From Candidatus Nanoarchaeia archaeon (GTDB lineage Archaea > Nanobdellota > Nanobdellia > Tiddalikarchaeales > Tiddalikarchaeaceae), in the NCBI GenBank assembly GCA_041653395.1, contig JBAZFK010000001.1:66728-130727 (forward strand): 64,000 bases of DNA, read 5' to 3'. Both the position numbers and the translations under genes were made by a program. The notes under the pieces are model-generated. The model did no database searches. It was not told where the DNA came from and saw only the letters and a list, made by a program, of their open reading frames with translations. Of this stretch, positions 3,624 to 58,308 are shown in pieces; position 1 is the first letter of the stretch; the number at the start of each line of letters is the position of its first letter.

Positions 3624-6128
3624 ATGGGTAATAAAGTTTTTATCTTCAGTATTTTAATTTCAATAATCGCTTTTTCAGGCTGCACGCAACCCGGAACTTT
3701 AACAAATAATTCAGGCAATAATTTAAATTTATCAGCTGAAGAAAACATCACTTACAATCCTGACATTAATCATCCTCCAGTGGTTGAGTTATGGGATTGC
3801 AATCTTAATGACACGGGCTGCGTTATGGATCAGGCCAATCCTAACCAAATAGTTTTTGAAAATGAAGGGGTGAAAGTAACAGCTCCAGCATACTCCATTA
3901 AGTTATCTGCTGATCTCACCCCAACAGTTATTGAAAAGGATGAATTAAACGGCAAACTAACCTTTCAGGTTGCTGATTCGGATGAGCTCTTGGAGCCTGT
4001 CACTGTCCAAATAACTATGGGCGCATTAAATTTCACAGACTTAATGGTTTATGCTAAAATCAACGGAGAGTGGGTGCCTTCAGGCCTTGCCTCTTATGAC
4101 AACACAACTAATATTGCAAGCTTTGAAGCTGACCATTTCAGCGAGTGGACATGCACTGGAACAACCCTTAATCCTGCATCTTCCCTAAAGATTGACATAA
4201 TTGATTATGAGGAGCATTCCTCTGATGTGACCTGCATGGGCCCTGTCGGCTATTTTGAAGGCAAACCTTTAAGCAGGGGATTAAAATTTGAGGTGTATAA
4301 TGGGGCTGGCGAAAAAATCGACACTAATAATGTAAAGCATTATAAGATTAGTTTTCTCTCCTCAATCAAGTCTTTTTTTAATAACTTAAACAGCCCGGTA
4401 TTGGATGAAGGCACTATGTCTTTTTGCTTTGACAACACTGACCCTAACAATGCAGATACTTCAAAGTTTTTGATTAAAGTTTATGCTGAAAACGAGGTTG
4501 CCAAGATGCTAAAAAGCGGAGGAAACATTAGGTATGTCATGGATGCTTATTTAGGCGCAAGCAGTTCACTTACTTTTAATTATCCTGATGATGAGACAAA
4601 GACTGCTTTTGAAATAATCAGGCATTTCACTGAATTAGCTGACTTTTGGAGATTAAAGAGTTCTAAATCAGGCTTTGTTGCATCACAAAGAGAGGTGACT
4701 TGGCCTGATCCTGACGGCTCATATTTTTACAATAAAGGCAATGTAATAGGTTTAGCAAGAGAGGCTACCAGTGATTTTGGAATGAATCAGGGTGACGGGG
4801 ATTCAGCTGCTCATGAGTACGCTCATTGGGCTACAAGGTTTCTGTACGGCTCATATGATTACTCCAAATTGTCAACTACTTCTGCTCAGCATAGCATTGG
4901 GGATAAAACCAATGAAAACGATGCATTCAAGGAGGATTTGGCATATTTTGCAGAGAACGCTTTTGACGGAATATTGACTGATGAGTTAGATAAGGCTAAT
5001 ATAAAATTAAGGCTTCCTGAGATAGTTTCAACCTACCAAAATTATATTAATTATTATATCCAGGCAAGGGCGAACGCAATGAGTGCGAGGACTCTGGGGG
5101 GAGTGGTTGACGGAAAGGATGAGGCAGGATGGGAAAGCAGCAAGTCAACATTTTTAGGAATGATTAGGCAATATTATGAGGACAATAATGAATTTGTGAA
5201 CTCAGCCATAAATAATCCTGGAGAAATTGACGGTTTCGGAGCATTAGTTTTATGGGACTTATATAAATCAATAGGGGCAAACGGTTATAAGCAGATATGG
5301 GATTTAGTGGCAGAGTCTCAGCCAAGGAATTTTAACTCATTCGTGGCTTCTTGGAGCGCAAAATACGGCACAGGAATAATGGAGGTTGTGAAAAAATACA
5401 TTGATGAAAATGCAACTTTAATGAAAACTCCTGAAGAAATACTCGCAGAATTGCAGTCAGTCTGCTATGACAATTCAGAATGCGATGATGCTAATCCCTG
5501 CACAGAGGATTATTGCATGAGGCTTGTTGATATTGCCAGCCCAATTATTCCCGGACAGCAAAGGTACCAGATGTGCTCAATGCTTCCTGTTTGGAAAGGC
5601 TCGCATTATGACTGCTCAGGAACTGCTGGAGGGACATGCATGCACTACAAAGCAACTGGATATGTGCAGGATGATTATTCAAAACTGATAGTGAATGACA
5701 ATCAATACGGCGAATCAGCAGTAATATTGGAGTCTTACAGGGGAGAAGCTATCCCCTCCTCAGAGTGCACTGGAGACAGGTGCTTTTATATGTGCTGCCA
5801 AAAAGGCGAAGTGCAGACTAGGCTAACAATGCCAAATGAGCTGGCTTACGAAAACACTAACTGCAACGGAGTTTCGGGCGAGCAATGCATTAGTTACTAT
5901 GACACTTGGGCAGAATGCTGCACGCCTAATGATTGCGTGTCTGAAAACGCTTTTGGAAACAGGGTTCAGTCAGCAGCAATATTTCACGGGGGAAAAACTC
6001 CCTTATGCATTAATAATTTATGTGTTTATGTAAAGACTTTGCCAAAAGAAGCAGTGATTACTTGCGCAGAAGAATGCATGTATAGCGGCTGCCCAGTAAG
6101 GTGCACCTATACTTATCCTGAAGAATAA
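3624..6128 (+). CDS. Large secreted lipoprotein with an HExxH motif (putative zinc metalloprotease) and a Cys-rich C-terminal domain.
   Basis: It has the lipobox AFSGC, an AAHEYAHWAT (HExxH) motif, and about 30 Cys in the last 250 aa. Confidence 0.4.
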   Translation: MGNKVFIFSILISIIAFSGCTQPGTLTNNSGNNLNLSAEENITYNPDINHPPVVELWDCNLNDTGCVMDQANPNQIVFENEGVKVTAPAYSIKLSADLTPTVIEKDELNGKLTFQVADSDELLEPVTVQITMGALNFTDLMVYAKINGEWVPSGLASYDNTTNIASFEADHFSEWTCTGTTLNPASSLKIDIIDYEEHSSDVTCMGPVGYFEGKPLSRGLKFEVYNGAGEKIDTNNVKHYKISFLSSIKSFFNNLNSPVLDEGTMSFCFDNTDPNNADTSKFLIKVYAENEVAKMLKSGGNIRYVMDAYLGASSSLTFNYPDDETKTAFEIIRHFTELADFWRLKSSKSGFVASQREVTWPDPDGSYFYNKGNVIGLAREATSDFGMNQGDGDSAAHEYAHWATRFLYGSYDYSKLSTTSAQHSIGDKTNENDAFKEDLAYFAENAFDGILTDELDKANIKLRLPEIVSTYQNYINYYIQARANAMSARTLGGVVDGKDEAGWESSKSTFLGMIRQYYEDNNEFVNSAINNPGEIDGFGALVLWDLYKSIGANGYKQIWDLVAESQPRNFNSFVASWSAKYGTGIMEVVKKYIDENATLMKTPEEILAELQSVCYDNSECDDANPCTEDYCMRLVDIASPIIPGQQRYQMCSMLPVWKGSHYDCSGTAGGTCMHYKATGYVQDDYSKLIVNDNQYGESAVILESYRGEAIPSSECTGDRCFYMCCQKGEVQTRLTMPNELAYENTNCNGVSGEQCISYYDTWAECCTPNDCVSENAFGNRVQSAAIFHGGKTPLCINNLCVYVKTLPKEAVITCAEECMYSGCPVRCTYTYPEE

Positions 6129-11661: not shown

Positions 11662-13359
11662 ATGAATAAGCCTGTCTTAATCTTAAGTTTATTATTATTA
11701 ATAGAAATAGCAAGCGCTGTAGAGTATGGTCCAACAGGAGCAGTTGGCGCGCCTGATATTTCCGAGATGGGGATTCCAGCAGAAGCTGCAGTCAGAGCTA
11801 GCCAAATACCAAAAGTTATACCTCAAGAAATTATTGATGCAGGAGCTGAAACTGAATATTTAGCTGTTAGCTGCGCAATGGCAAAGTATAATATGCAGAA
11901 GTTCGTTGATGGAGCTGATGCTGTGAAAGCAATATGGGATGAAGTGGTTGTAAGCTTAAGCTCGGAAGGAATAACATTGGATACTAGTGCATTATTATCT
12001 ATCAAAGAAGGTGTTTTAAGCAGGGTTGATGCTTTATGCTCTGCAACACCGCAAACTTATGCACAAGCAATTCAGGGTATTATTGATTATTCATTAGGAG
12101 CTAATGGGCTTGAGCAGCAGCTTAAAAGCATGGGCTCTGAATTAGAGACTAATATTAGGGCTAAAATGGATGGATATGCTGCAGAAGGTGAGGCTTTGCA
12201 GGCGCAGATTGATGCCTTAACTGGTGGCAAAAGCCCTGAAGAGATACAGGCAATAGTTAGCCAGATTCAGGCAAAGAGCACAGAGTATCAGGGAATTACT
12301 GCAAATCCCATGGCTATGCAAGATCCAGCAACTTCAGCAAGAGCAGCAGCATTATTGAGTGAAATACAAACTTTGCAAGCCTCAATTGGTGGAGCAACCC
12401 AAGAGGGCCAAGATGAAGGGGTAGCTTTAGGTGAGCAAGCTCAATCATTAGGAGATAAAGCTCAATTTTTAGGCACAAAAATTGAGAGCATTTTTGGAGG
12501 AATAACCGAAAAGATGAAGCAAGCGTTTGAGGGCAATGATTATTCTACTCAAAAATCAGAAGTTAATGAGGCTTATTATGCATTATTCTTGAAAGTATTT
12601 AATGCAAAAATCATTGATGTTAATGAAAAGAAAGCTGAAATCTCTGCTTATAATATAAACACGAGCATGTTTGATGAAGTCACTGAGTGGGCTGCACAGA
12701 AAAAAGAACAAGCCAAGTCAGTCTTTGTTGAAACAGCAACAGAAGAGGATATAAAAGAATTTATTGAATTAATCAATCTTGAAAGCGCTGAGATGGAGAT
12801 AAGAATTAATAGTATTATTGAAGGATTAATAAGAGAAAAATATGTTGAAAGCCTTGATGAATTAAGAAGCAATGCCAATGCAGGAATAGTTGCAGCAAAT
12901 AATGGGGGTTTAGACACAACCGAATTAGAAGCTTTGACTGCAGAGCTAGAAACTTTAAGGGATGAAGCAATAGCTTTGGATAATGCTGGTAATGATTCTT
13001 TGGCTTTTGAAAAAATAGGCGAGGCACAAGCAGTTGTTGCATTGGTTCAGGAGGAATACGCGAAGCTTCAGGCTCAAGGTGAAGGGGTTCAGATTCAGGC
13101 TCAGGCAGTAATTGCAGCAATTAACTCAGAGAAGGATAAATTATTGTCTTTAAAGCAAGCAGCGCAAAGCTTAAGCCTTGACACTAGTTTGCTTGAAAGC
13201 TTAGAAACTGATTTATATTCTTTAGAAGCTCAAGCGCAGGAGTTATTGGATGCTGGGCAGAATGCTCAGGCATTATTGTTAATCCAGGAGACTAAGGATA
13301 AATTTGAAATTTTGAAAGCTGAATATTCTAGATTATTATCTGAGGTGAGGGCTGAGTGA
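11662..13359 (+). CDS. Secreted Ala/Gln/Glu-rich coiled-coil surface protein.
   Basis: It has a signal peptide. The composition is low-complexity AQE-rich with heptads. Confidence 0.35.
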   Translation: MNKPVLILSLLLLIEIASAVEYGPTGAVGAPDISEMGIPAEAAVRASQIPKVIPQEIIDAGAETEYLAVSCAMAKYNMQKFVDGADAVKAIWDEVVVSLSSEGITLDTSALLSIKEGVLSRVDALCSATPQTYAQAIQGIIDYSLGANGLEQQLKSMGSELETNIRAKMDGYAAEGEALQAQIDALTGGKSPEEIQAIVSQIQAKSTEYQGITANPMAMQDPATSARAAALLSEIQTLQASIGGATQEGQDEGVALGEQAQSLGDKAQFLGTKIESIFGGITEKMKQAFEGNDYSTQKSEVNEAYYALFLKVFNAKIIDVNEKKAEISAYNINTSMFDEVTEWAAQKKEQAKSVFVETATEEDIKEFIELINLESAEMEIRINSIIEGLIREKYVESLDELRSNANAGIVAANNGGLDTTELEALTAELETLRDEAIALDNAGNDSLAFEKIGEAQAVVALVQEEYAKLQAQGEGVQIQAQAVIAAINSEKDKLLSLKQAAQSLSLDTSLLESLETDLYSLEAQAQELLDAGQNAQALLLIQETKDKFEILKAEYSRLLSEVRAE

Positions 13360-15078: not shown

Positions 15079-16698
15079 ATGTTTAAAAATTTTTTTTTAT
15101 TGTTAGCATTATTGTTTTTTTCAAAGATTTATGCTTTTGACATTAGCCAAATAAGCCACTATGATTTTGACACCTTTGACTGCAGCCAATTCGACGAGGA
15201 GGAACTAATAAGGCACTGCGAATCAACAAAGTCATTCATAAAAGGATGCTATATAAACCCTAACTCTTGCGATTGCTCATACTTTTCAGAGGATGAAGCT
15301 AAAGCTGAGTGCCAAAAATGGGTTGATGAAGGCATTAAATTAATGAGCCAAAAATCCGAGGAGTGCATGAATGATTTGACTGCTTGCTCGTGTGCTGACT
15401 TGCCTCATCCACGATTAGTTGATGTTTGTGAGAATGAAAAAGCAAAATTTATAGGGAAACTGAAAGCTTTAGAGCAATTATGCTTTGATACTCCGGAGGC
15501 TTGTGACTGCTCAATTTTTGAAAAGTCAGAATATGTTTCTAAATGCAATGAAGAACTAGCCAAAGGTGCAGAAATCAAGGCAGCATGCGAATCAAATATT
15601 TCTTTATGCGACTGCTCAATCATCACTAACCTGGTTGCCAAGCAAAAATGCGAAGAAGCCAAGACTTATTATGTAGATTATGAGTCAAATTTTAGGCAAA
15701 AATGCGAAGATAATTTTGATGAATGCGACTGCACAAAAATACCGAATCTGAACGGTCAAAAACAATGCGAAGAAGCAAAAAAGCAGGCAGTAACTCAAGC
15801 AGAGGGCCAAGTGTATGCAATGCTTTATGACTGCTTCAAAGACATTAATTCCTGCGACTGCACAAAATTAGAAAATACGGGTTACATTAATTATTGCGAA
15901 GAGACTAAGAGTTACGGCTTTGCTTGCATGCAAACAGGAGGAATGGGCTGCGAGCAGCTTGATAACATTGTTTTTTATCCTCCAGGCTTGCCAACATTTT
16001 TGCAGCCTTATTTTGCCCAAACTTTTAAGAGCTTCATTGATGCTGAGAAGTTGAAAGGAATGGCAGCTTCAGCTGAAATTGCCAAAACTTGCGTAATAGA
16101 CCCGGAGAATTGCGACTGCTCAGCTATACCTGTCTATGCAAGGGAGTTTTGCCTAGACAAAAAAGAGATGCAGCTAAACTGCATTAATGGCAACATAACT
16201 GCTTGTGAATTATTAGACCAGACAATTAATGTAGTTCCCTTAACTGCCCCGAAATTTGTCAGGGATTTTCTGGATCCAATACTCAGGCCTTTAGTGTTGC
16301 TTCAAAAGGAGCAAATCAAAGGTCAGTATGCAGAGAAAGTGAAGGATCAAATGCTTGCCTGCATTGATGATGAAAATTCATGCAATTGTGAAAGCGTTCC
16401 TTTGCAATATCAAGAGTTCTGCAGTAATAAGATTAATCTGGTGAAAGAGTGCAGGCTAAAGAATTATGAGTCATGTTTCAGATTAATGGATGAGTCTAAT
16501 ATTCCTGATGATATTCCAGGATTTATCAGAATCTTTGTGGAAAGCTCTGTAAATAGCCAGGTTAACCAGAGAATGAATGAAGTGTTTTTAGAAATAAGGC
16601 CAAGTGCTTGCATAAGCATGAGCGTATCAGAATGCAGGAAATATTATGAGGACAATTGCAAAGGGTTAAGTGTCAATGAGTGCCTAGTTACTCAATAA
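15079..16698 (+). CDS. Secreted Cys-rich repeat protein with about 8 CDC[ST]-x9-11-C-x-E repeats.
   Basis: It has a signal peptide. The repeats include SCDCSYF..AECQ, ACSCADL..VCEN, ACDCSIF..KCNE, LCDCSII..KCEE, ECDCTKI..QCEE, SCDCTKL..YCEE, NCDCSAI..FCLD and SCNCESV..FCSN. Confidence 0.5.
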   Translation: MFKNFFLLLALLFFSKIYAFDISQISHYDFDTFDCSQFDEEELIRHCESTKSFIKGCYINPNSCDCSYFSEDEAKAECQKWVDEGIKLMSQKSEECMNDLTACSCADLPHPRLVDVCENEKAKFIGKLKALEQLCFDTPEACDCSIFEKSEYVSKCNEELAKGAEIKAACESNISLCDCSIITNLVAKQKCEEAKTYYVDYESNFRQKCEDNFDECDCTKIPNLNGQKQCEEAKKQAVTQAEGQVYAMLYDCFKDINSCDCTKLENTGYINYCEETKSYGFACMQTGGMGCEQLDNIVFYPPGLPTFLQPYFAQTFKSFIDAEKLKGMAASAEIAKTCVIDPENCDCSAIPVYAREFCLDKKEMQLNCINGNITACELLDQTINVVPLTAPKFVRDFLDPILRPLVLLQKEQIKGQYAEKVKDQMLACIDDENSCNCESVPLQYQEFCSNKINLVKECRLKNYESCFRLMDESNIPDDIPGFIRIFVESSVNSQVNQRMNEVFLEIRPSACISMSVSECRKYYEDNCKGLSVNECLVTQ

Positions 16699-35830: not shown

Positions 35831-37444
35831 ATGAAGTCAATCACTCCAGTAGTCAGTGTTATCTTAATGGTATTAATTACAATAGTAGCAAGTGTTAGTG
35901 CTTTCTTTTTTATTAATTCAAATGTTTTAGATTTAGAATCGCAGGGCAATTTAGACAATTATCCAGGAGCTGACAATTCAAGGCTTAATTTAGTCTCAAT
36001 CACCGGAAGCAAGGCAATTGTCAGGAATGACGGCTCAAGCCCAGTTAATGAAGTCATAGTTTTTATCAATGGCGAAATGTTCAACTACTCATTAGACACT
36101 CCACTTTTGCCAGGAGAATACAAAGAAATCACTTACACACCTCAATTAATCTCAAGGGATTTGGAAATAAAAATGATTTATAATAATGGAAAAATAGCCC
36201 AGCAAACAAGCCCTGCAAGGGTTAATACAGAAAATTCCGGATTCGTTGACTCGCATTGCCCTGACAATATTTGTGACATTGAAGGGGGAGAAACTCTTAT
36301 TAACTGCTTTCTTGATTGCGGAACAAAAATCTCTATGCACCAGCATGAAAACTTTGATGGAACAAATGATGCAATAATAAAAGTTGAAAGAATAGTTAAT
36401 GAAGACGGAATATTTTTCGGGAACAGAAGCGTTGTTTATTCTCCAGGGGATGAATTAGTTAATGACAGGGAAAATTTTTTGGATAATAACTACTGTTTCA
36501 GCTTATTTGGATATGAAGAGAACTTAAAATATTTTTATTATGACGGAACCCAATTTTCAGAGCTTATGAATCTCACTAATTTAAGGAATACTCATGAATC
36601 AAGAGCTGTCAGGGCAAATAATAATGTGCATATAATGTTCATAAATTGCACAACTTCTTATAATAGTGGATGCGATTTAGTTTACCTTAATTGGAGCGTC
36701 TCTAATGGTTTTTCAAGCTTTGAAAAAATAACTGATTTAGGTTTGGTTGAATCCGAGTTCTATGAAAGTGATAATGTTGAATCCCCCATCATTTCAGTAA
36801 GCAACAATGAAAATTATAAATTAGCTGCATGGATTAATTCAGGAATAATAAATTACACAGTTTATAATAACATCTGGAATGAAATAAGCACCCTAATAAT
36901 TGACCCTGATGTTGATGAATTATTATCAGCAAGGATAAACAATCAAGGACACATAATAATGATTTATTATAATAATTCAGAAAACCAGATAATATACTAT
37001 AATGGCTCTGATTGGGAAAAATTAGACAATAGTCTTTTTTTATCAAGCTCGCTTATAAGAGCTGAAGCCTTAGATGATTCCTTTATAATAATGTATCAAT
37101 CAGGAGCTTATTTTAATTCAACACTTTTATCAAATAATGAATACTCAAATATTCAGCGCATACTCAATGAATCATCTGCAGTTGTAATGCCTTTTAAGAC
37201 AAAATATGATTACATTATCGGATTTGTGATAAGGCCTAATGGGCATGGCACAAGTTTATTTTATGATTCCTCAGATAATTCATGGAAGAACCCAATTAAT
37301 GTGACAATTTCAGGAGGACCCATACCTGCTTGCGAAAAATATGAAAGATATTCTGGAGAGTGCTCAACTGAAACTTGGTGCAATGACAGCGTTGACAACG
37401 ATGAAGACGGGTTATATGATAATGATGACTCTGACTGCCCATAA
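35831..37444 (+). CDS. Archaeal type-IV-pilin-like (class III signal peptide) surface protein with an acidic Cys-containing C-terminus.
   Basis: The N-terminal MKSITPVVSVILMVLITIVASVSAFFF matches the archaeal flagellin/pilin N-terminal domain. The C-terminus is DNDEDGLYDNDDSDCP. Confidence 0.4.
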   Translation: MKSITPVVSVILMVLITIVASVSAFFFINSNVLDLESQGNLDNYPGADNSRLNLVSITGSKAIVRNDGSSPVNEVIVFINGEMFNYSLDTPLLPGEYKEITYTPQLISRDLEIKMIYNNGKIAQQTSPARVNTENSGFVDSHCPDNICDIEGGETLINCFLDCGTKISMHQHENFDGTNDAIIKVERIVNEDGIFFGNRSVVYSPGDELVNDRENFLDNNYCFSLFGYEENLKYFYYDGTQFSELMNLTNLRNTHESRAVRANNNVHIMFINCTTSYNSGCDLVYLNWSVSNGFSSFEKITDLGLVESEFYESDNVESPIISVSNNENYKLAAWINSGIINYTVYNNIWNEISTLIIDPDVDELLSARINNQGHIIMIYYNNSENQIIYYNGSDWEKLDNSLFLSSSLIRAEALDDSFIIMYQSGAYFNSTLLSNNEYSNIQRILNESSAVVMPFKTKYDYIIGFVIRPNGHGTSLFYDSSDNSWKNPINVTISGGPIPACEKYERYSGECSTETWCNDSVDNDEDGLYDNDDSDCP

Positions 37445-44742: not shown

Positions 44743-44829
44743 ACTGCTTAATTAAGGTTCATTTTTTTAAAAACTTGATTGTTTCATAATTCTTATAAAT
44801 ACAAAATATTAATATTATTCTTGTTAAGT

Positions 44830-44913
44830 GCTATGATGGCGGAGTGGTCTATCGCGTCGGTCTAGAAAACCGATTCTCGCAAGGGAGCACAGGTTCAAAT
44901 CCTGTTCATAGCG
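44830..44913 (+). tRNA. tRNA-Ser (type II, long variable arm). The anticodon reads AGA in my fold, so it has A at position 34.
   Basis: The hand fold gives acceptor GCTATGA/TCATAGC with G73, D-arm GCG..CGC, anticodon stem TCGGT/ACCGA with loop CTAGAAA, a 15-nt variable arm, and T-arm ACAGG TTCAAAT CCTGT. Confidence 0.75.
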
Positions 44914-44954
44914 GTCCGAGACTAATTCTATACGCCATCCAGTTTTCTTTATAA

Positions 44955-47205: not shown

Positions 47206-48264
47206 TTACTTCTTTCTTCTTCTAAATAAGAAGAATATCAGGTATGCTACTGTTGATAGCCAGTATCCTATTTCGTATTGTTTTTGGCCATAGAACATGT
47301 ATCTCATTGTTATCATTAAGTAGGCAATATTAACTATGTTGTTTGAGCTGATTAGGTTTATTCTTTTAGTGCTTGGCTTGACATGTTCTACAAGCTTGTT
47401 TTCTTCATTCAATTCTTTTAGAGCTAAATTTTGTTCGCACACTTTTTTTATCTGTTCTGGGCTGTTGTTGGTGCTGTTTTGGACTATTCTTATTACTTCA
47501 TTTGTGTTTTCGCATTTGCCTTCTAAGAGTTTCATTATTAATTGGTTGGCTTCTTGGTTGGTTAATGATTTAAGCTTAATAGTGTGGTCAAATTCAATGT
47601 ATGCTTTGTTGTTAATTCCTGCTCCTATGAATTGGTAGTTGTTTCTCATTAAATCCTTGATAATTTTCTTGTCATTAACAGTGGCTGATTCTAAAGAGTC
47701 TAACAAAACAATTATATGATTGTTGTCTTGGCGTAATTTATTCATTAATTCCTGCTTATTGGCTGATTTGCTGGTTATTATTCCTTTGGCTTTGCATATT
47801 GTTTCTAGGCAAGTCTTTATGGGCTTAATCTCTGCATAAACGCTGCCTTTCAAGTATTTATCATTTAATCTTTTAAGCAAAGCTGTTTTTCCAAATCCGC
47901 TCTCTCCTAATAAGAGGACATTTTTCTTCCTTTCAGCATTGTAAAGAATTTCATTAATAACTTCCTTGTTTTCAATGAATAAATCTTTATTGTCAAAAAC
48001 TAAATCTTGTTTTAATTCTGTATTTATTGATTCAAACTTTCCTAAAACTGTTAAAGCTAAAAGTTTTCCTTTAGAAGTTAATGAATACTTGTTTTCTTTC
48101 TTGTCAACTATTCCATTAATAATATAAGAATTAATGATTCTGTAAAAAGTCTTTTTATTAACATTCTTGATTTCATTAAAAGCTTTAGAATTATCAAACA
48201 ACTCTTCCAATATTAATTGATGATTCTTTGTTTTAGAACACAACTGCACAAGCTTTGACCACAT
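47206..48264 (-). CDS. Winged-helix / P-loop ATPase with a C-terminal transmembrane anchor.
   Basis: It has an N-terminal wHTH-like FYRIINSYIINGIV, Walker A LLLGESGFGKTALL, Walker B IIVLLDSLE, and a hydrophobic C-terminal tail. Confidence 0.5.
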   Translation of the reverse strand: MWSKLVQLCSKTKNHQLILEELFDNSKAFNEIKNVNKKTFYRIINSYIINGIVDKKENKYSLTSKGKLLALTVLGKFESINTELKQDLVFDNKDLFIENKEVINEILYNAERKKNVLLLGESGFGKTALLKRLNDKYLKGSVYAEIKPIKTCLETICKAKGIITSKSANKQELMNKLRQDNNHIIVLLDSLESATVNDKKIIKDLMRNNYQFIGAGINNKAYIEFDHTIKLKSLTNQEANQLIMKLLEGKCENTNEVIRIVQNSTNNSPEQIKKVCEQNLALKELNEENKLVEHVKPSTKRINLISSNNIVNIAYLMITMRYMFYGQKQYEIGYWLSTVAYLIFFLFRRRKK

Positions 48265-48332
48265 GAAAGGTATTAGTTTTAAAGATGTATAAAAACAAAT
48301 ATGTTTTTAATAAATTAAATATTTAATTTATT

Positions 48333-49094
48333 ATGGTTGATTTGGTTAACAAGAAAAGGGTTAATTATGACAAACTTGTAGGTTCTTCAAGGGATTTTAC
48401 TAAGCAAATAGAATGGATGGATAAATTATTTAAAAAATATGGAGTTAAGACTGTTCTTGATGCAGGTTGTGGGACAGGAACTCATGCAGTTTTATTGGCA
48501 AAAAAAGGATACCTAGTTTCAGCTTTTGATTACAGCAAAGGGCAGGTAGAACTTGCTAAAGAAAAAGCAAAACAAAACAATGTTAAAATAAATTTTTATG
48601 TGGGAGATATTAGGGATTTTGATTTTGGAAAATTTGATGCAATAGTGAGCTTTTTTGCTCCAATAATGTTTGGATGCAAAAATAAATCCGATTTAAAAAA
48701 AGCCATTTTATCCATAAAGAATTCATTAAGCCCAAATGGCATAGCTTTTATTGAAACTATGGATTCTAAAATGATGGAATCTTCAGGTCTTGAAATACTC
48801 AAACATGCTGACAAAGATTTCAAAGCTGCAAGACTGGCATTCTATGATTTTAATAAAGATAAAAAATCAGCTAAAATAAAATATGTTGAAGTTATTGAAA
48901 ACAATAAAAAAATAACTATTGACAAATCAGAAGCAAATCATTATTACTATGACAAGAAAGATTTTGAAGAAGTGTTTAAATCCCTTGATATTAAACTAAT
49001 TAATTGGTATAGTTCATTTAATGATAAGAAAGGAAAGTATGATTTATTTTCAGATAAAGTATCTTGGATGATTACCCCTTTATTTAGAAAATAA
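48333..49094 (+). CDS. Class I SAM-dependent methyltransferase.
   Basis: It has motif I VLDAGCGTGTHA, post-I SAFDYS, and motif II FDAIVSFF. Confidence 0.65.
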   Translation: MVDLVNKKRVNYDKLVGSSRDFTKQIEWMDKLFKKYGVKTVLDAGCGTGTHAVLLAKKGYLVSAFDYSKGQVELAKEKAKQNNVKINFYVGDIRDFDFGKFDAIVSFFAPIMFGCKNKSDLKKAILSIKNSLSPNGIAFIETMDSKMMESSGLEILKHADKDFKAARLAFYDFNKDKKSAKIKYVEVIENNKKITIDKSEANHYYYDKKDFEEVFKSLDIKLINWYSSFNDKKGKYDLFSDKVSWMITPLFRK

Positions 49095-49674: not shown

Positions 49675-50292
49675 AAAATTTATGCATTTCTTGATTTTAT
49701 TTATGAAATAACTTCAAATTTTTTTCTTGGATGGAAATATGTTGGAAATACTTTTGATATCTATTCAATAAAAAACATTCATCCAACTATTATAAAAATA
49801 TTAGAAAATAAAGCTAAAAAAAAACAGAAGCTTTGGAATAAAAAAAATAAGGGATTTATTTCATTAGGCAGGACTATTAGGGGAGTAAAAAATGAACATG
49901 ATATTCCTTCAGTTATTGTTTATGTTAATGGAAACACTTGGAAATATAAAGGTAAGAAATCTTCAAGTCAATGGATTGATAATCATGGCCATGGAGGAAG
50001 ATTAAGTTCTGGAATGAAAATTTGGAGAAAATTAAAAAATAATAAAAATAAAACTCCAAAAATTCTTTTATTATCTGAAAAAGTAGGTAAATGGAAAGAA
50101 AAAAGAGAAACTAAACATTTTTCATATCCAACTAATCCTTGGCCTAATAATATAAGATTACCAGAATATGTTAATGGGAAAAAAGTAAGATTTTGGAAAC
50201 AACAAAGTGATGATGATTCTGAAGGATATGTTATTCCTATTTTTTATAAAAACCCCAAAGATAAGCTTTTTAATAAGAAATTATTAAAATAA
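49633..50292 (+). CDS. Hypothetical basic Trp/Lys-rich protein.
   Basis: The ORF's 3' end and downstream region are repeated at 50933. Confidence 0.3.
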   Translation: MIRHIFWAVIIVFQKIYAFLDFIYEITSNFFLGWKYVGNTFDIYSIKNIHPTIIKILENKAKKKQKLWNKKNKGFISLGRTIRGVKNEHDIPSVIVYVNGNTWKYKGKKSSSQWIDNHGHGGRLSSGMKIWRKLKNNKNKTPKILLLSEKVGKWKEKRETKHFSYPTNPWPNNIRLPEYVNGKKVRFWKQQSDDDSEGYVIPIFYKNPKDKLFNKKLLK

Positions 50293-50330
50293 ATAATATG
50301 AAATGGTGGTATTGGGTATTAATAATTGGA
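50257..50330 (+). repeat. Direct repeat, copy 1 (about 75 nt, 51-nt identical core). It spans the gene 3' end, the intergenic region and the MKWW start module.
   Basis: AAAGATAAGCTTTTTAATAAGAAATTATTAAAATAAATAATATGAAATGGT is identical at 50933. Confidence 0.8.
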
Positions 50331-50915
50331 TTTTTTTTCTTTTATATGAATTCTATTAAATATTTTGAATCTATTATAATTTTATCAATATTACTTTTAC
50401 CAATATTAGGATTAATATTAATTCCACTTATGCTTATAAAAAATCAAGCTGATAAAAAAGAAGAAGAAAAATTGGAAACACAAATAACAGAAAAAGAAAG
50501 AATGGAAGAAGAAAAATTGGAAAGACAAAGAAAACAAGAAGAAAGAATGGAAGAAGAAAAATTGGAAAGACAAAGAAAACAAGAAGAAAGAATGGAAGAA
50601 GAAAAATTGGAAAGACAAAGAAAACAAGAAGAATCAATAAATAGTGAAATAAAAAAACGGAATAAATCATATTTAAAAAGTTCTCATTTTATAAAGACTG
50701 AAAAAAAATCATTAGATGATAAAATATTTTGTTTAAAATGTCATAAAAGATATGAAAATACTTTTGACAGATTTCTGTGCCATTATTGTGATAACTATTA
50801 TTGTTCCTCCCATAGATTACCCGAAAATCATAATTGTAAAGGTAATTTAAAATCACATTCTTCAAGTTTAATGGAGTCCTATTCTAAAGGAAACTTAACC
50901 GCAAGAGGAAAATAA
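50298..50915 (+). CDS. Membrane-anchored AN1-type zinc-finger protein with an internal 15-aa x3 charged repeat.
   Basis: It has an N-terminal TM (MKWWYWVLIIGFFFFY), the repeat ERMEEEKLERQRKQE x3, and C-x2-C-x12-C-x2-C-x4-C-x2-H-x5-H-x-C (CLKCHKRYENTFDRFLCHYCDNYYCSSHRLPENHNC), which is an exact AN1 spacing. Confidence 0.55.
   Translation: MKWWYWVLIIGFFFFYMNSIKYFESIIILSILLLPILGLILIPLMLIKNQADKKEEEKLETQITEKERMEEEKLERQRKQEERMEEEKLERQRKQEERMEEEKLERQRKQEESINSEIKKRNKSYLKSSHFIKTEKKSLDDKIFCLKCHKRYENTFDRFLCHYCDNYYCSSHRLPENHNCKGNLKSHSSSLMESYSKGNLTARGK
50496..50630 (+). repeat. In-frame tandem repeat of 3 x 45 nt inside the AN1 protein gene.
   Basis: Three perfect copies encode ERMEEEKLERQRKQE, preceded by a degenerate partial copy. 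Confidence 0.85.
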
Positions 50916-50932
50916 TATTCTAAAAAGTCCTT

Positions 50933-51006
50933 AAAGATAAGCTTTTTAATAAGAAATTATTAAAATAAATAATATGAAATGGTATCATGGGGTATTAATA
51001 ATTGGT
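50933..51006 (+). repeat. Direct repeat, copy 2 (duplicate of 50257-50330).
   Basis: See copy 1. Confidence 0.8.
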
Positions 51007-51480
51007 ATAATTTATTTTTTAATTTCTAATTTAAATTCAGATGTTATTTCTGATTCAAATTCAGAGGTTACAGGTTTAATTACTGCTAGTTCTAATCCTT
51101 TATCTACTTATGAATTAGAGGATATTTTTATGAGTATGAGTGTAGAAGGTGCCTATGATTATAGAACTCAACTCTTTGAAGGAGATGCATATTATGCATT
51201 TAGCGATTTGTTTCCATTAAATAGTGAGTGGGAATATGTTTATACTCCTTTAGGGTATGATGAAAATATGAATTATCATAATCCTAAGGATTTTTGTCAT
51301 GCTGGTTCAAGTCAGGGAGAAAATGTTAATTATGTTTATTGTTCATTCCCTGTTAAAATAACTCCTGTTAGTAATGATGGAACTATTGGGATTGTTAAAA
51401 CAATAAATTTAAATGTAAAAATTGATTCATATTGTTTTCGTGAACCATTTCCTTATTGTGTTTTTACAATAAAAGAATAA
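50974..51480 (+). CDS. Membrane-anchored hypothetical protein sharing the duplicated MKWYxxVLIIG N-terminal module.
   Basis: Its N-terminal TM segment is paralogous to the 50298 ORF start and to the C-terminal anchor of the 52673 ORF. Confidence 0.35.
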   Translation: MKWYHGVLIIGIIYFLISNLNSDVISDSNSEVTGLITASSNPLSTYELEDIFMSMSVEGAYDYRTQLFEGDAYYAFSDLFPLNSEWEYVYTPLGYDENMNYHNPKDFCHAGSSQGENVNYVYCSFPVKITPVSNDGTIGIVKTINLNVKIDSYCFREPFPYCVFTIKE

Positions 51481-51482
51481 AA

Positions 51483-52024
51483 TTAGTATTTGAGCATCAT
51501 TTCTCTTTTTAGGTGCCTTAAGGCTTTGAAGAGCAGTTTCTCGTTTAGGTTTAACTTTGTAGCTATTGCTGTCATTTTTAGTTCTCCTCCGTAGTTCTTG
51601 ACTACATAATATGCTAGGGCTCCTATTGATAGGCCTAGTTCTCTGCCTTGTGTCAGGTTGCTTTGTAAGGCTTTGAAGTATAGCCTTTTGATTTCGCTTA
51701 TTTGGTGCTCTTTTAGCTCCAATTTATCGCACATTATGTCTATTTCTGGTTCGTTTATTCCGAATCTTCTCTCATTGTAGTTTGTCATATTTACCCGCAC
51801 CTCACAGGGCAAGCCATACTTATTATTATGGCTCTGCCGTTTATTATTTTTGCTTCAGTCAATGTTTGCCTGAAGTTGCATCTCCAAGCATTGTACAAGC
51901 TTTCCTTAGTTGCCTTCACGTTCCCTCCATAATAGATGTAGTTATCTATTACATAGCCGCAGTGATAGCAGTAGTACTCGTATCTCCCTTTCATCATTAC
52001 TATGTCGCAGTTAGGACAAAGCAT
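51483..52024 (-). pseudogene. Minimal TFB/TFIIB-like gene, frameshifted. A Zn-ribbon ORF runs 52024-51791 and a single cyclin-fold ORF runs 51812-51483.
   Basis: The upstream ORF has the TFIIB Zn-ribbon MLCPNCD...YYCYHCGYV. The downstream ORF has the cyclin-like helix ELGLSIGALAYYVVKNYGGELKMTAIA. They overlap by 22 nt in different frames. Confidence 0.4.
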
Positions 52025-52613: not shown

Positions 52614-52672
52614 AATACGGAAAAATAAAGTGTAAGAAATGCTTTTAAATAGAATTAAATATTTATTTTATT

Positions 52673-53983
52673 ATGGTAATTAAGGATAAAATCCTTGAAT
52701 TTAAGAAAAGTAAATTCAAAAGTGTTGTTGAATCTGTTTGTAAAGCTAGAAATTTGTCATTACCCACTATTAATTTTGATGGTTGTTCTGAAGAAACAGA
52801 AAATCAATTAGCACATTATCATAAAGATAATAATACTATTTGTGTTTCAGAAAGACAATTAAATAAAATGAATTCTGATGTTTTAGAAAATAACGCAGCT
52901 CACGAAGTAAGTCATATTCTTGAATTTAATCATAGTTCAAGTTTTCATAATGAAAATGCTATAAGTCGTCAAGCATCTTTTGTTAAAAAATATAATCAAA
53001 AAAGTCCTGATATAAGTGATTTAAAAGAAAAAGAAGCAGATAAAGATGAATGTGCTTTTCATCTGTGTCATTACAAAGGTGATGAATTATATTATTGTTC
53101 TTTTTGTAAAAAATATTACTGTCATAAACATAAAATACCAAAGTCTCCTTCCATGCCTAATTTTAGATCTGCATCATTAGAAAATGAGGATAAATTATAT
53201 GATTATAGACAAGAAGGTCATCCATGCCCTAATTTTAGAGGATATTATCATGAAGATGTTCATGATCAAAAAATAATTGTTAAAAATATTGAAAGAAAAC
53301 CAAAAATAGATATTAAGGAAAATCAAAGGATAAAAAAAGAAGAATGTGGTCAAGCATTAGATAAGGCACTAAAAACTCCTATAAATAAAAACAATTTCAA
53401 TTCTCAAAAAAAAGAACAGGTATATGTTGATCAATGGATTAACCTAGGTTATGGACAAAAAACTGCTAGTGAATCACTTAATAACTCAAAAAAATATAAA
53501 TCTATTTATGATGAAGATAATGCGCAAATAAAAAATGAAATCTGTGATTTTTGTAAAGATAGAGTTTCTAATGTATTTTATTGCGAACATTGTAACAAAT
53601 ATTTTTGTTATAAACATAGAAATACTCAAAGTCATAACTGTAAAGTTGATAAAAATTCAGAGTATTATAAGAAAAAACTAGAAGGACTTAAAAAAACTTC
53701 AGAAGCATATAATAAATTAAAAAAAGTAAAAAATGAAGATATTAAAGAAGATGAAAAAGAAGTTGTTGAAATTAAACCAGAAATACAAAACAAAAAAACC
53801 ATAAAATGGTATTGGCCAATAATAATTGGTTTTATTTTATTTTATTTAAATTCATTTTTAATTTATATTGATTCATTCAATTATTATGAAAATATTTTTA
53901 TTCTTGTAATATTTTATTTTGTAATTATTTTATTTTCAGTAATTATTTCAATTATTTTATTTTTAAATGAAAATCATAAATAA
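52673..53983 (+). CDS. SprT/Wss1-like HExxH zincin fused to two AN1-type zinc fingers and a C-terminal transmembrane anchor.
   Basis: It has ICVSERQL...AAHEVSHILEFNHSSSFH (SprT-like), CDFCKDRVSNVFYCEHCNKYFCYKHRNTQSHNC (AN1 spacing) plus a degenerate first finger, and a C-terminal WYWPIIIGFILFY TM segment. Confidence 0.5.
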   Translation: MVIKDKILEFKKSKFKSVVESVCKARNLSLPTINFDGCSEETENQLAHYHKDNNTICVSERQLNKMNSDVLENNAAHEVSHILEFNHSSSFHNENAISRQASFVKKYNQKSPDISDLKEKEADKDECAFHLCHYKGDELYYCSFCKKYYCHKHKIPKSPSMPNFRSASLENEDKLYDYRQEGHPCPNFRGYYHEDVHDQKIIVKNIERKPKIDIKENQRIKKEECGQALDKALKTPINKNNFNSQKKEQVYVDQWINLGYGQKTASESLNNSKKYKSIYDEDNAQIKNEICDFCKDRVSNVFYCEHCNKYFCYKHRNTQSHNCKVDKNSEYYKKKLEGLKKTSEAYNKLKKVKNEDIKEDEKEVVEIKPEIQNKKTIKWYWPIIIGFILFYLNSFLIYIDSFNYYENIFILVIFYFVIILFSVIISIILFLNENHK

Positions 53984-55193: not shown

Positions 55194-55513
55194 GGCTAAT
55201 TGTTTTTATATTACTTTATTATTATTAATTATCATGGATAAAGAACTTGAAAAATTTTTTACACCAGTTGAATTAAAGATACTGGAAATAATTGAAGAAG
55301 CAAAGAAAGAAAAGAAACTAAAAGAAGAACAAGAAAAAAACAAAAAGAAAGAATAAAACTAATCTTTTTATTATTTTTTTATTAATAGAAAATTCTAACA
55401 ACGTTTTTAATTAATCAATGCTTAATTTTAACCTGCAAATCATTTATCGGGAAAACACTGAAGGATAATTGTTGACTTTTGATTGATTGGCGTATATACT
55501 TAGTATAGGCAAG

Positions 55514-55526
55514 CCTGTTCATAGCG
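55514..55526 (+). repeat. 13-nt exact direct repeat of the tRNA-Ser 3' end (CCTGTTCATAGCG), a candidate attR.
   Basis: It is identical to 44901-44913. It is GC-containing, so a chance match is unlikely in AT-rich DNA. Confidence 0.4.
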
Positions 55527-56925: not shown

Positions 56926-58308
56926 TCATAGCGGTTCTCTGATTGGAGTTATTTGGGCTCTTCTGTAAAAATCTCTTTTGAAAAGATTTTTTTCAATGTT
57001 GAATAATCCTTCTTTTCCTTCCATCAAATATTTTACTCCATTTAAGTAAATATCCATTCTTGAATTAGCCATTATATTGTTTTCATGGATTATTCGATCG
57101 TTGTCATTCATGACTGAAGCATTAAATGCTCTCATCATCATCCATTCAGTTTCTTCCAAGAATTTATGGGGTTTGAATAAGTGTTCAAGGTTCATGATTT
57201 CATAATACCTAGTTTTTTCTCCATCAAGCTTTGTTCTTAACACAGTGAATAAGCTATAATTTTTTAGTCCAAAAGGAAAATCATGGTTTTTATAACGAGT
57301 TGGAGGAGCGTTTTTTATTCCTCTGATTTGCTCTTCAAGCTCTCTTAGGGTTGTTTTTGCGTCGCTTAATATTATGAAGCTATTAGTGCAGATTTCTGAG
57401 TTTTTTAAAATGCTTAATGATTTATTATTATCTTTTACAGTGGTTTTTTTGTTCCATCTGTTAAGTTGAGATTGCGAAAATGATTCAATGCCTATGCTGA
57501 CTTCCTCAATGCTTTTGCAATAATCCTTAAATATTGATTCATTCTCTACAACACTATCCGCTCTTGAAAGAAATAATGCTTTTAGATTATTCTCACTTAA
57601 GTATTCAAGGATTTTTTCAGCCCTTATCGGGTCTGACATGAAGTTATCATCCATGAACTGAATCCTGCTTAAATTTTTGTGATATTTTATTAATTTGTCT
57701 ATCCAGTTGATTACTGTATTTGCATTCATACCTCTTAATCCTTGGTTGAAATATTTTGCCTCGCAGAATGAGCAGTTTCCATTGCATCCTCTCATTGTTG
57801 ACAGCTGCACAATGCTATTAAGATTCTCTCCATAAAATAAGGGTGTGACAGCATTGTTAATATCAATAGGGTTTCTTTTTGAAAAATTGCTGTTTCTCTG
57901 GTAAATTCCTTTAATTTTTGAAGTGGATTCGTTGTTTTTTATTGCTAAAACATACTCCAGTAATGTTTCCTCTCCTTCTCCCCAGCATATTGCATCTATG
58001 TACTCATTTTTTAGCAATTCTTCATGAAAAATGCTTACCTGCCCTCCAACTATCACATAAATTCCAGGATTTGCATTCTTGATTACTTTTGAGTATTCTT
58101 TTATGTCATAAATATCCTCTGGGAAGCCACTGAGCCCTACGACTTTTGGATAAATCATCATTTTAGGATCATCTCTAAAATTGTCAATGCTGCAGCTTAC
58201 TCCATTTTTAAGCATGTATTCTTTCAAGAATTCAAGACCAAGAATCGGCCTTTCATACTTTGTGTTTCCAGCTTTAATCAAAAGAACATCCACTTTGTTA
58301 TAATCCAT
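56926..58308 (-). CDS. B12-binding-domain radical SAM protein.
   Basis: It has the CxxxCxxC motif CNGNCSFC and an N-terminal B12-binding-like domain. Confidence 0.6.
   Translation of the reverse strand: MDYNKVDVLLIKAGNTKYERPILGLEFLKEYMLKNGVSCSIDNFRDDPKMMIYPKVVGLSGFPEDIYDIKEYSKVIKNANPGIYVIVGGQVSIFHEELLKNEYIDAICWGEGEETLLEYVLAIKNNESTSKIKGIYQRNSNFSKRNPIDINNAVTPLFYGENLNSIVQLSTMRGCNGNCSFCEAKYFNQGLRGMNANTVINWIDKLIKYHKNLSRIQFMDDNFMSDPIRAEKILEYLSENNLKALFLSRADSVVENESIFKDYCKSIEEVSIGIESFSQSQLNRWNKKTTVKDNNKSLSILKNSEICTNSFIILSDAKTTLRELEEQIRGIKNAPPTRYKNHDFPFGLKNYSLFTVLRTKLDGEKTRYYEIMNLEHLFKPHKFLEETEWMMMRAFNASVMNDNDRIIHENNIMANSRMDIYLNGVKYLMEGKEGLFNIEKNLFKRDFYRRAQITPIREPL

Follow-up and report, generated by a model that had tools for sequence, protein, structure and literature searches.

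The stretch of DNA analyzed here, called the window throughout, comprises 64,000 nucleotides of contig JBAZFK010000001.1 from a Candidatus Nanoarchaeia archaeon. It is a normal archaeal chromosome segment that carries a split RpoB, RpoA', EF-2 and CysRS. We studied one complete gene in it, which lies on the forward strand at 52673–53983 and encodes a predicted membrane-tethered metalloprotease with AN1 zinc fingers; the features of this gene described below lie on the same strand. As a sequence-only reading of the locus had reported, the open reading frame (ORF) begins with ATG and specifies 436 aa. Its product is built, from the N-terminus, of a zincin domain, an AN1-like finger, a linker, an AN1 finger and a transmembrane hairpin, with K/E-rich linkers joining the modules. 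An identical protein is on record in the 'Candidatus Nanoarchaeia archaeon' metagenome-assembled genome (MAG) and on two further contigs (NCBI, JGI, Logan). The ORF occupies the most AT-rich part of the window (24% GC), where reading frames of such length seldom arise by chance. Because it extends over 436 codons at this composition, finds homologs down to E = 1e-34 when its product is used as a single-sequence query, and belongs to a family of ~650 cluster representatives, it is not a chance reading frame.

The family was collected from nine relatives first and then by an exhaustive profile search, which gave 652 cluster representatives at E ≤ 1e-3 and 166 at E ≤ 1e-30. A ~210-aa N-terminal core, consisting of the zincin and the first finger, defines the family; the AN1-like first finger always accompanies the zincin. 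Named members are mostly DPANN archaea (Woesearchaeota, Micrarchaeota), together with a few MAGs labelled Bathyarchaeia or Methanosarcinales. The sources label the proteins 'hypothetical', and one homolog is an 'M48 family metallopeptidase' at NCBI. In the literature searched we found no description of a zincin–AN1–membrane architecture, in agreement with the sequence-only reading, which had called it undescribed. All of the parts are of known kinds; it is their fusion, the membrane tether and the size of this unannotated DPANN family for which we found no published account. The family merits a profile of its own, as current libraries leave its members 'hypothetical' or 'M48'.

The zincin domain and its nearest relatives

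The AlphaFold2 model, Foldseek and profile matches place a minimal zincin metalloprotease domain at residues 1–108 (52673–52996). Its catalytic zinc motif, AAHEVSHILEFNH (52901–52933), was assigned from conservation and from an alignment with Wss1, and reads H77-E78-x2-H81-x5-H87. The segment ICVSERQL is found at residues 56–63; this segment and the HExxH core were both where the sequence-only reading had seen them. We observed H77, E78 and H87 in all 156 family representatives (clusters at ≤50% identity) and H81 in 155 of them. Conservation of this kind in the alignment is what one expects where an active site has been kept.

An AlphaFold2 model of residues 1–212, built from 84 sequences, had a mean predicted local distance difference test score (pLDDT) of 90.1, rising to ~97 in the zincin part (residues 1–100). 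An earlier full-length model built from 10 sequences had a pLDDT of 60 outside residues 1–100 and was kept out of the fold search. The predicted elements are a helix (2–25), three strands (32–34, 48–50 and 55–57), the HExxH helix (68–80) and a further helix (89–108), with H87 in a predicted coil at 81–88. In a Foldseek search of the PDB, the top ranks were held by the minigluzincins selecase and projannalysin (4qhi, 4qhf, 4jix; E = 5e-4 to 1e-2). Wss1 of both yeasts came next (5xbv, 5xbn, 5jig), with TM(target) values of 0.60–0.64 and a root-mean-square deviation (rmsd) of 2.8–3.1 Å over 102–110 columns (probability 1.00), followed by PprI and HtpX. SPRTN was a marginal match (6mdx_A; E = 1.5, rmsd 6.8 Å). 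Fold matches in a viral structure library were a mix of SprT-like proteins (many of them phage models), IrrE-like proteins and M48. The model is consistent with the zincin fold that the sequence-only reading had anticipated.

Profile searches pointed to the same relatives. A zincin-only family profile of 33 sequences, searched against PDB sequences, matched Wss1p best (E = 7.7e-6), selecase at 1.2e-5 and the HtpX homolog 3cqb at 1.6e-5. The selecase alignment spans the whole domain (profile positions 13–97 against selecase residues 4–87). The Wss1 motif HELTHNLFGPHDKKF aligns column for column with the family motif HEvtHlleksHdskF, and H77, E78, H81 and H87 align with H115, E116, H119 and H125 of S. 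cerevisiae Wss1. In the Wss1 crystal structure the zinc is held by His-115, His-119 and His-125, the last of which is on a loop after the helix (PMC5557861). By this alignment we infer a tetrahedral zinc site formed by H77, H81 and H87, at which E78 would act as general base; the invariant H87 would be the third ligand that the sequence-only reading had named as a check on its zincin call.

Searches with the single sequence were far less informative. The zincin gave only sub-threshold matches in Pfam, NCBIfam and the PDB (YgjP-like, E = 0.007; HtpX; ADAMTS). The protein had no match to Pfam WLM (PF08325) at E ≤ 1 or E ≤ 0.1, scored 14.6 bits against Pfam SprT-like (PF10263; cutoff 25.6) and 12–17 bits against the NCBIfam HtpX models (cutoffs 245–369). 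Sub-threshold Pfam matches among 84 family members were to SprT-like (43), WLM (42), YgjP-like (33) and M48 (12), the best WLM match having E = 2e-6. Since the single sequence gave only sub-threshold matches, the zincin assignment is based on the profiles of 33–84 sequences and on the model from the deeper alignment. Wss1, Spartan and the minigluzincins have already been linked by Balakirev et al. and Yang et al. (PMC4559962, PMC5557861). We conclude that the N-terminus is a minimal zincin of the Wss1/WLM–SprT–minigluzincin group, nearest to Wss1 and selecase and below the threshold of every curated family. The sequence-only reading had called it SprT/Wss1-like: kinship with the Wss1 group was borne out by fold and profile, whereas the Pfam score and the SPRTN superposition did not bear out SprT specifically.

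Each known relative differs from the protein in a definable way. Wss1/WLM proteins (S. cerevisiae 5xbn, S. pombe 5jig) share with it a minimal zincin, an identical HExxH-x5-H-D-xx-F and a third histidine on a loop, but family members match WLM only below threshold, and the protein itself does not match it. Wss1 is soluble and nuclear, has Cdc48-binding SHP/VIM and SUMO-interaction motifs, which are short and confined to eukaryotes, and its proteolysis is DNA-activated (PMC4559962, PMC6945406), whereas the protein studied here is archaeal and has AN1 fingers and a membrane hairpin. The M. jannaschii minigluzincins, selecase MJ1213 (4qhf) and projannalysin (4jix), are likewise archaeal, give the best fold matches and have an HExxH with a downstream histidine. 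They are stand-alone soluble proteins of ~110 aa that lack a zinc finger, an anchor and the C38/H48/H50/C57 set described below, whereas the 436-aa protein has all three. The spacing from the second to the third histidine is six residues in selecase and five here. The profile match to HtpX/M48 (3cqb) starts with the N-terminal helix and extends over the HExxH helix. The third zinc ligand of M48 proteins is a glutamate on a later helix, unlike the histidine five residues after HExxH in our protein; moreover, the HtpX protease domain is embedded among transmembrane helices, whereas here it is a soluble module on a distal hairpin, the sole hydrophobic segments of the protein being at its extreme C-terminus. 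SprT-like proteins and SPRTN (6mdx) belong to the same small-zincin superfamily and also have a zinc-binding module directly after the protease, but the finger in our protein is AN1-type and not a SprT zinc-binding subdomain.

Inside the zincin we observed a further conserved set, C38 ... H48-x-H50 ... C57 (52784–52843), whose residues are conserved at 84%, 96%, 95% and 95%, respectively, across the family. A hairpin is predicted here (strands 48–50 and 55–57), and the four residues are part of it or adjoin it; Wss1, selecase and HtpX lack them in the alignment. The set might serve as a second metal site or else as a cysteine (latency) switch. A cysteine switch has been proposed for Wss1 (PMC4559962).

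AN1 fingers and the membrane hairpin

The second finger (residues 291–323; 53543–53641) is a bona fide, canonical AN1 zinc finger by Pfam and by ligand spacing. It follows the pattern C291-x2-C294-x9-C304-x2-C307-x4-C312-x2-H315-x5-H321-x-C323, exactly the spacing given by the sequence-only reading, and scores 31.7 bits against Pfam zf-AN1 (PF01428; gathering cutoff 27.9). Such an extra canonical finger is present in 9 of the 156 family representatives.

The first finger (residues 127–185; 53051–53227) belongs to the conserved core, and its ligands are 92–100% conserved across the family. Its pattern, C127-x4-C132-x9-C142-x2-C145-x4-C150-x2-H153-x29-H183-x-C185, has its ligands in the order of AN1, but the first pair is spaced by x4 and the last H-x-C is preceded by x29. 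The isolated segment from the protein itself had no Pfam match. Of the equivalent segments from 27 members, 15 matched zf-AN1 (E ≤ 0.01), more than matched any other family, and hhalign related the first-finger profile to the second finger with 92% probability. Against the PDB the same profile matched AN1 domains (1x4v, 7y7l, 1wfe; E ~0.016–0.06), with B-box and zinc-ribbon proteins scoring equally. The modelled finger superposes on the AN1 domain of Cuz1 with an rmsd of 0.9 Å over 30 columns. Our reading is that of an AN1 finger that has diverged, the 29-residue insert having shifted its last two ligands. Of the two AN1-type fingers in the sequence-only reading, the second is canonical and the first, on our reading, divergent. 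The ZFAND family and Cuz1 carry comparable AN1 fingers and work with protein-degradation machinery (PMC8224753). They differ in having no protease domain and in pairing AN1 with A20, UBL or UIM, whereas our protein has no ubiquitin-system modules and carries the insert inside the second zinc site of its first finger.

A Kyte-Doolittle scan identified a C-terminal hydrophobic hairpin (53807–53965) with segments at residues ~379–400 and ~407–431, split by a ~6-residue loop and preceded by a K-rich segment. A membrane anchor at the C-terminus had been part of the sequence-only reading; its single helix is replaced here by two hydrophobic segments. Among the 144 representatives of at least 230 aa, 81 (~56%) have a transmembrane or hydrophobic segment after the core. 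These 81 comprise 24 proteins that are tail-anchored like ours, 48 with at least 40 residues beyond the transmembrane segment and 9 that are polytopic. The 15 residues flanking the first transmembrane segment contain, across the family, a mean of 4.35 K+R before it and 1.09 after it. Because of this positive-inside bias, the core of protease and fingers is expected to be in the cytoplasm. The domains that follow the membrane segment in relatives are typical of cell surfaces: CAP/PR-1, transglutaminase-like, NosD, CarboxypepD_reg and SpaA-type. CAP/PR-1, transglutaminase-like or NosD domains occupy this place in the larger members P0006, P0085, P0147, P0152, P0058, P0156 and P0099.

Taken together, conservation, profiles and models make it highly probable that the gene encodes an active zincin with AN1 fingers and a membrane tether, as a member of a chromosomal DPANN family. 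Wss1/SPRTN-type proteases and AN1-finger proteins are usually seen as parts of eukaryotic proteostasis and genome maintenance. Here a Wss1-like catalytic domain and AN1 fingers share a single chain, and this combination characterizes a large family without a name in DPANN archaea of reduced genome; its members are usually tethered and often have surface domains.

A possible role at the inner face of the membrane

We propose that the protein is a zinc metalloprotease, predicted to be active, that would be anchored on the cytoplasmic side of the cell membrane. Its AN1 fingers, by analogy with eukaryotic proteins, would dock a protein partner or substrate, and the hairpin would limit the protease to membrane-proximal targets. 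In eukaryotes, the AN1 domains of ZFAND proteins and Cuz1 act with the proteasome/Cdc48 machinery, and ZFAND5 needs its AN1 to stimulate the proteasome; the exact role of the finger in eukaryotes has nevertheless been called unclear (PMC8224753). Because AN1 docking and a tether would together confine cleavage to the inner face, the enzyme might carry out regulated or quality-control cleavage of proteins there. A soluble domain on a tether would then do an HtpX-like job at the same face of the membrane. Of the readings considered we favour this one, proteolysis for regulation or quality control at the inner face and not on DNA, although the statement, taken whole, is not quite probable; the particular biological role sketched here is more tentative still. 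In relatives with a single transmembrane segment followed by a CAP, transglutaminase-like or NosD domain, the module on the cytoplasmic side may be linked to what happens outside the cell.

The genomic context of relatives bears on this proposal to a limited extent. Homologs have as neighbours chromosomal genes such as those for ribosomal proteins, EF-1alpha, helicases and nucleases, and the Micrarchaeum homolog lies just past EF-1alpha/S10, in the same chromosomal region as the gene studied here. In an all-against-all comparison of ORFs in 28 homolog loci, LemA was found within 6 kb in 7 loci, and it was also found in two others (L037 and L040). These neighbours often occur with NUDIX and LigT-like 2H phosphoesterase genes in an arrangement that varies by lineage and is absent from the window; LigT-like genes were found in 4 of the 28 loci and in L037, NUDIX genes in several, and tandem paralogs were seen as well. 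Recurrent partners are only loose. In S. pneumoniae, htpX and lemA are adjacent and co-regulated (PMC8546594), and the LemA link, which part of the family thus has in common with HtpX, therefore leans weakly towards an HtpX-like membrane role. The loci with a LemA-family gene within a few kb were L007/L010, L008, L009, L013, L014, L018, L021, L037 and L040. A conserved link to Cdc48 was also considered and rejected: a Cdc48 gene was found within 4 kb only in Micrarchaeum loci.

Several observations weigh against the proposed role. The transmembrane calls come from a simple hydropathy scan, and the zinc-site geometry is taken from the Wss1 alignment rather than from measured distances. Membrane tethering is not universal in the family, as ~44% of representatives have no predicted transmembrane segment, some of these being gene fragments from short contigs. 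The protein itself has no ectodomain. LemA accompanies the family in part, at roughly one-quarter to one-third of loci, and tblastn found no LemA in the window. Finally, a Cdc48 gene, which could supply a partner for the AN1 fingers, lies nearby in the Micrarchaeum loci alone.

Among the alternatives, the protein could be the cytoplasmic output of a transmembrane signalling protease which, by the logic of BlaR1/MecR1, cleaves an AN1-docked regulator upon an event at the cell surface. Many members indeed consist of a cytoplasmic core, a single transmembrane segment and then a CAP, transglutaminase-like, NosD or adhesin-like ectodomain, and in one locus (L013) a CAP-domain gene neighbours the homolog. 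Membrane proteases of families M48 and M56 have catalytic domains for which the minigluzincin fold serves as the accepted soluble model, and BlaR1 and IrrE/PprI-type regulatory zincins were among the weaker fold matches. However, the BlaR1 matches are very weak (E > 2), our protein has just the ~6-residue loop between its hydrophobic segments where an ectodomain would be, and no repressor-like gene is conserved beside family members in the 28 loci. We consider such a signalling function unlikely for this protein. In L013 the CAP gene (5187–5918) is a separate Zn-ribbon–CAP gene that adjoins the family gene.

The sequence-only reading had drawn attention to the logic of eukaryotic DNA–protein-crosslink proteases, by which the protein would be an archaeal analogue of Wss1/SPRTN whose finger after the protease binds DNA. 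The zincin data are compatible with this, as Wss1 is the best PDB profile match and a close structural match with an identical HExxHx5H-DxxF, and about half of the 84 members match WLM and about half SprT-like, below threshold. Like SprT-domain proteins, the family has a zinc finger immediately behind the protease; the isoelectric point of its core (median 8.4) is slightly basic; and one homolog directly follows an ERCC4/XPF nuclease gene. The remainder of the architecture fits poorly. With ~56% of members tethered to the membrane and many carrying extracellular domains, a hairpin like that of our protein would be odd for a chromatin protease. The finger is AN1-type, unrelated to the SPRTN zinc-binding domain, and AN1 is known from protein–protein contexts (PMC8224753); SPRTN itself reached only E = 1.5 in the fold search. 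Pfam-type scans of the protein and of family members detected no DNA-binding domain, and among the loci compared LemA, NUDIX and LigT recur instead of DNA-repair genes. A crosslink-repair function is in our view improbable. The ERCC4/XPF-type nuclease gene (L038, 4239–4874), directly upstream of the homolog on the same strand, was the sole DNA-repair neighbour seen.

Returning to proteolysis at the inner membrane face, a more specific version can be imagined: a Wss1-type protease that docks through AN1 on Cdc48 or the proteasome at the membrane, with the C38/H48/H50/C57 set keeping the enzyme latent and the ectodomain-bearing relatives acting as one-component transmembrane signalling or remodelling proteins. 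We regard this combination as speculative and unlikely to hold in full. If AN1–Cdc48/proteasome docking were true, the protein would combine, in a prokaryote, the equivalents of two devices of eukaryotic proteostasis, and if the signalling coupling were true, the family would connect CAP or transglutaminase-like domains at the surface with proteolysis in the cytoplasm and so provide a new one-component transmembrane system in host-attached DPANN archaea. Characterization of the family could yield a tractable prokaryotic partner for the AN1 finger, show roles of Wss1/minigluzincin-type minimal zincins beyond DNA repair, and uncover a membrane-proximal route of proteolysis or signalling in host-attached organisms.

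The low-GC stretch around the gene

The gene lies in a part of the window whose composition and content are unusual, and the sequence-only reading had placed it inside a mobile-element-like island, with a stress or defense protease or an element-encoded effector as possible functions. GC content is 24–28% across 46–54 kb compared to 33–38% elsewhere in the window. Upstream of the gene is a tRNA-Ser(aga) at 44829–44914, the last 16 nt of which (44898–44913) recur 10.6 kb downstream at 55511–55526 (15/16 identical, 13 nt exact; 0.04 expected per window). In an alignment of the flanks the match stops at 16 nt. The two copies bracket the low-GC stretch that holds the gene, and they may be the attL/attR pair of a degraded integrated element. 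The interval between them contains ORFans, two S-adenosylmethionine (SAM) methyltransferases, two winged helix-turn-helix (wHTH) ATPases, a truncated TFB-like gene and locally duplicated modules. Among the ORFs at 44.9–55.5 kb, Pfam and PHROGs revealed no integrase, recombinase or viral hallmark, and the ATPase–wHTH protein downstream of our gene matched nothing in the PDB or among the phage proteins searched. Integration of this segment is possible but weakly indicated. If the 44.9–55.5 kb segment had integrated, an empty tRNA-Ser site would be expected to end at CCTGTTCATAGCG.

It would be a further step to take the gene as cargo of such an element, acting as a defense protease or effector. 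The low GC, the recurring tRNA end and the ORFans, duplicated modules, truncated TFB-like gene and wHTH-ATPases nearby are what one would cite in favour. The absence of an integrase or viral hallmark between the repeats speaks against it, as does the family as a whole. We found no family relatives in phage, plasmid and IMG/VR collections, PHROGs gave no match for the protein, and PADLOC none for the protein or for the AN1 neighbour described below. Homologs lie among ribosomal, translation and repair genes, including the Micrarchaeum copy after EF-1alpha/S10. The family is chromosomal and not mobile, and integration into an island is not one of its properties. Of the island only the weak signs remain (low GC, the flanking tRNA-Ser and the 13–16-nt repeat). 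We rejected a defense role as unsupported, given the empty PHROGs and PADLOC results for the protein, and consider cargo status very unlikely. Latency or auto-inhibition is common among minigluzincins and in Wss1 (PMC4559962), but a catalytically inert scaffold that uses its zinc fingers alone is hardly credible for a family in which 155–156 of 156 representatives keep H77, E78, H81 and H87.

One neighbour resembles the protein in its parts. A gene for 205 aa at 50298–50915, on the same strand, encodes N-terminal transmembrane segments, three 15-aa EEKLERQRKQEERME repeats and then a C-terminal AN1 finger (Pfam zf-AN1, 29.8 bits). The EEKLERQRKQEERME repeats correspond to 45-nt tandem DNA repeats. 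It shares with our protein the transmembrane motif WYW.IIGF..FY.NS and the AN1 finger in reversed order; by BLASTP the motif is identical at 11 of 16 positions and the finger at 33% over 75 aa, and the DNA repeats D1 and D8 were noted here as well. In the other loci, no homolog of this neighbour was found beside the family gene. A 105-nt direct repeat (84% identity; 50239–50343 and 50915–51019) covers the upstream region and first codons of the ORFs at 50298 and 50974, which therefore share a duplicated start and N-terminal transmembrane segment (MKWWYWVLIIGF and MKWYHGVLIIGI).

A TATA-like TTTTAAATA was read at 52643–52651, on the strand of the gene and ~22–30 nt upstream of its ATG. Such motifs are not enriched over chance in this AT-rich window, and the element is a possible, weakly evidenced promoter of a leaderless transcript. 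A 44-nt upstream element with a TATA-like box that ends at the ATG is 77% identical between a methyltransferase gene (48294–48337) and our gene (52634–52677).

The TFIIB/TFB-like gene (51483–52024, reverse strand) consists of two overlapping ORFs in different frames, a Zn-ribbon of 77 aa and a single cyclin repeat of 109 aa. Either a single gene has been truncated and frameshifted here, or the two ORFs are a pair of mini-genes. The same two genes are called on an independent JGI contig (L001).

Four large ORFs in the housekeeping part of the window, at 3624–6128, 11662–13359, 15079–16698 and 35831–37444 (834, 565, 539 and 537 aa), had no Pfam match at E ≤ 1e-5. PADLOC matched the SAM methyltransferase at 48333–49094 to mad2 (E = 4.7e-24) and, weakly, the divergently oriented wHTH–P-loop ATPase at 47206–48264 to mad8; these matches (47206–49094) may be generic domain similarity rather than a MADS defense system. 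A radical SAM protein that binds B12 (56926–58308, reverse strand), encoded a short way beyond the putative island, matched the PADLOC candidate PDC-M51A (E = 5.7e-13).

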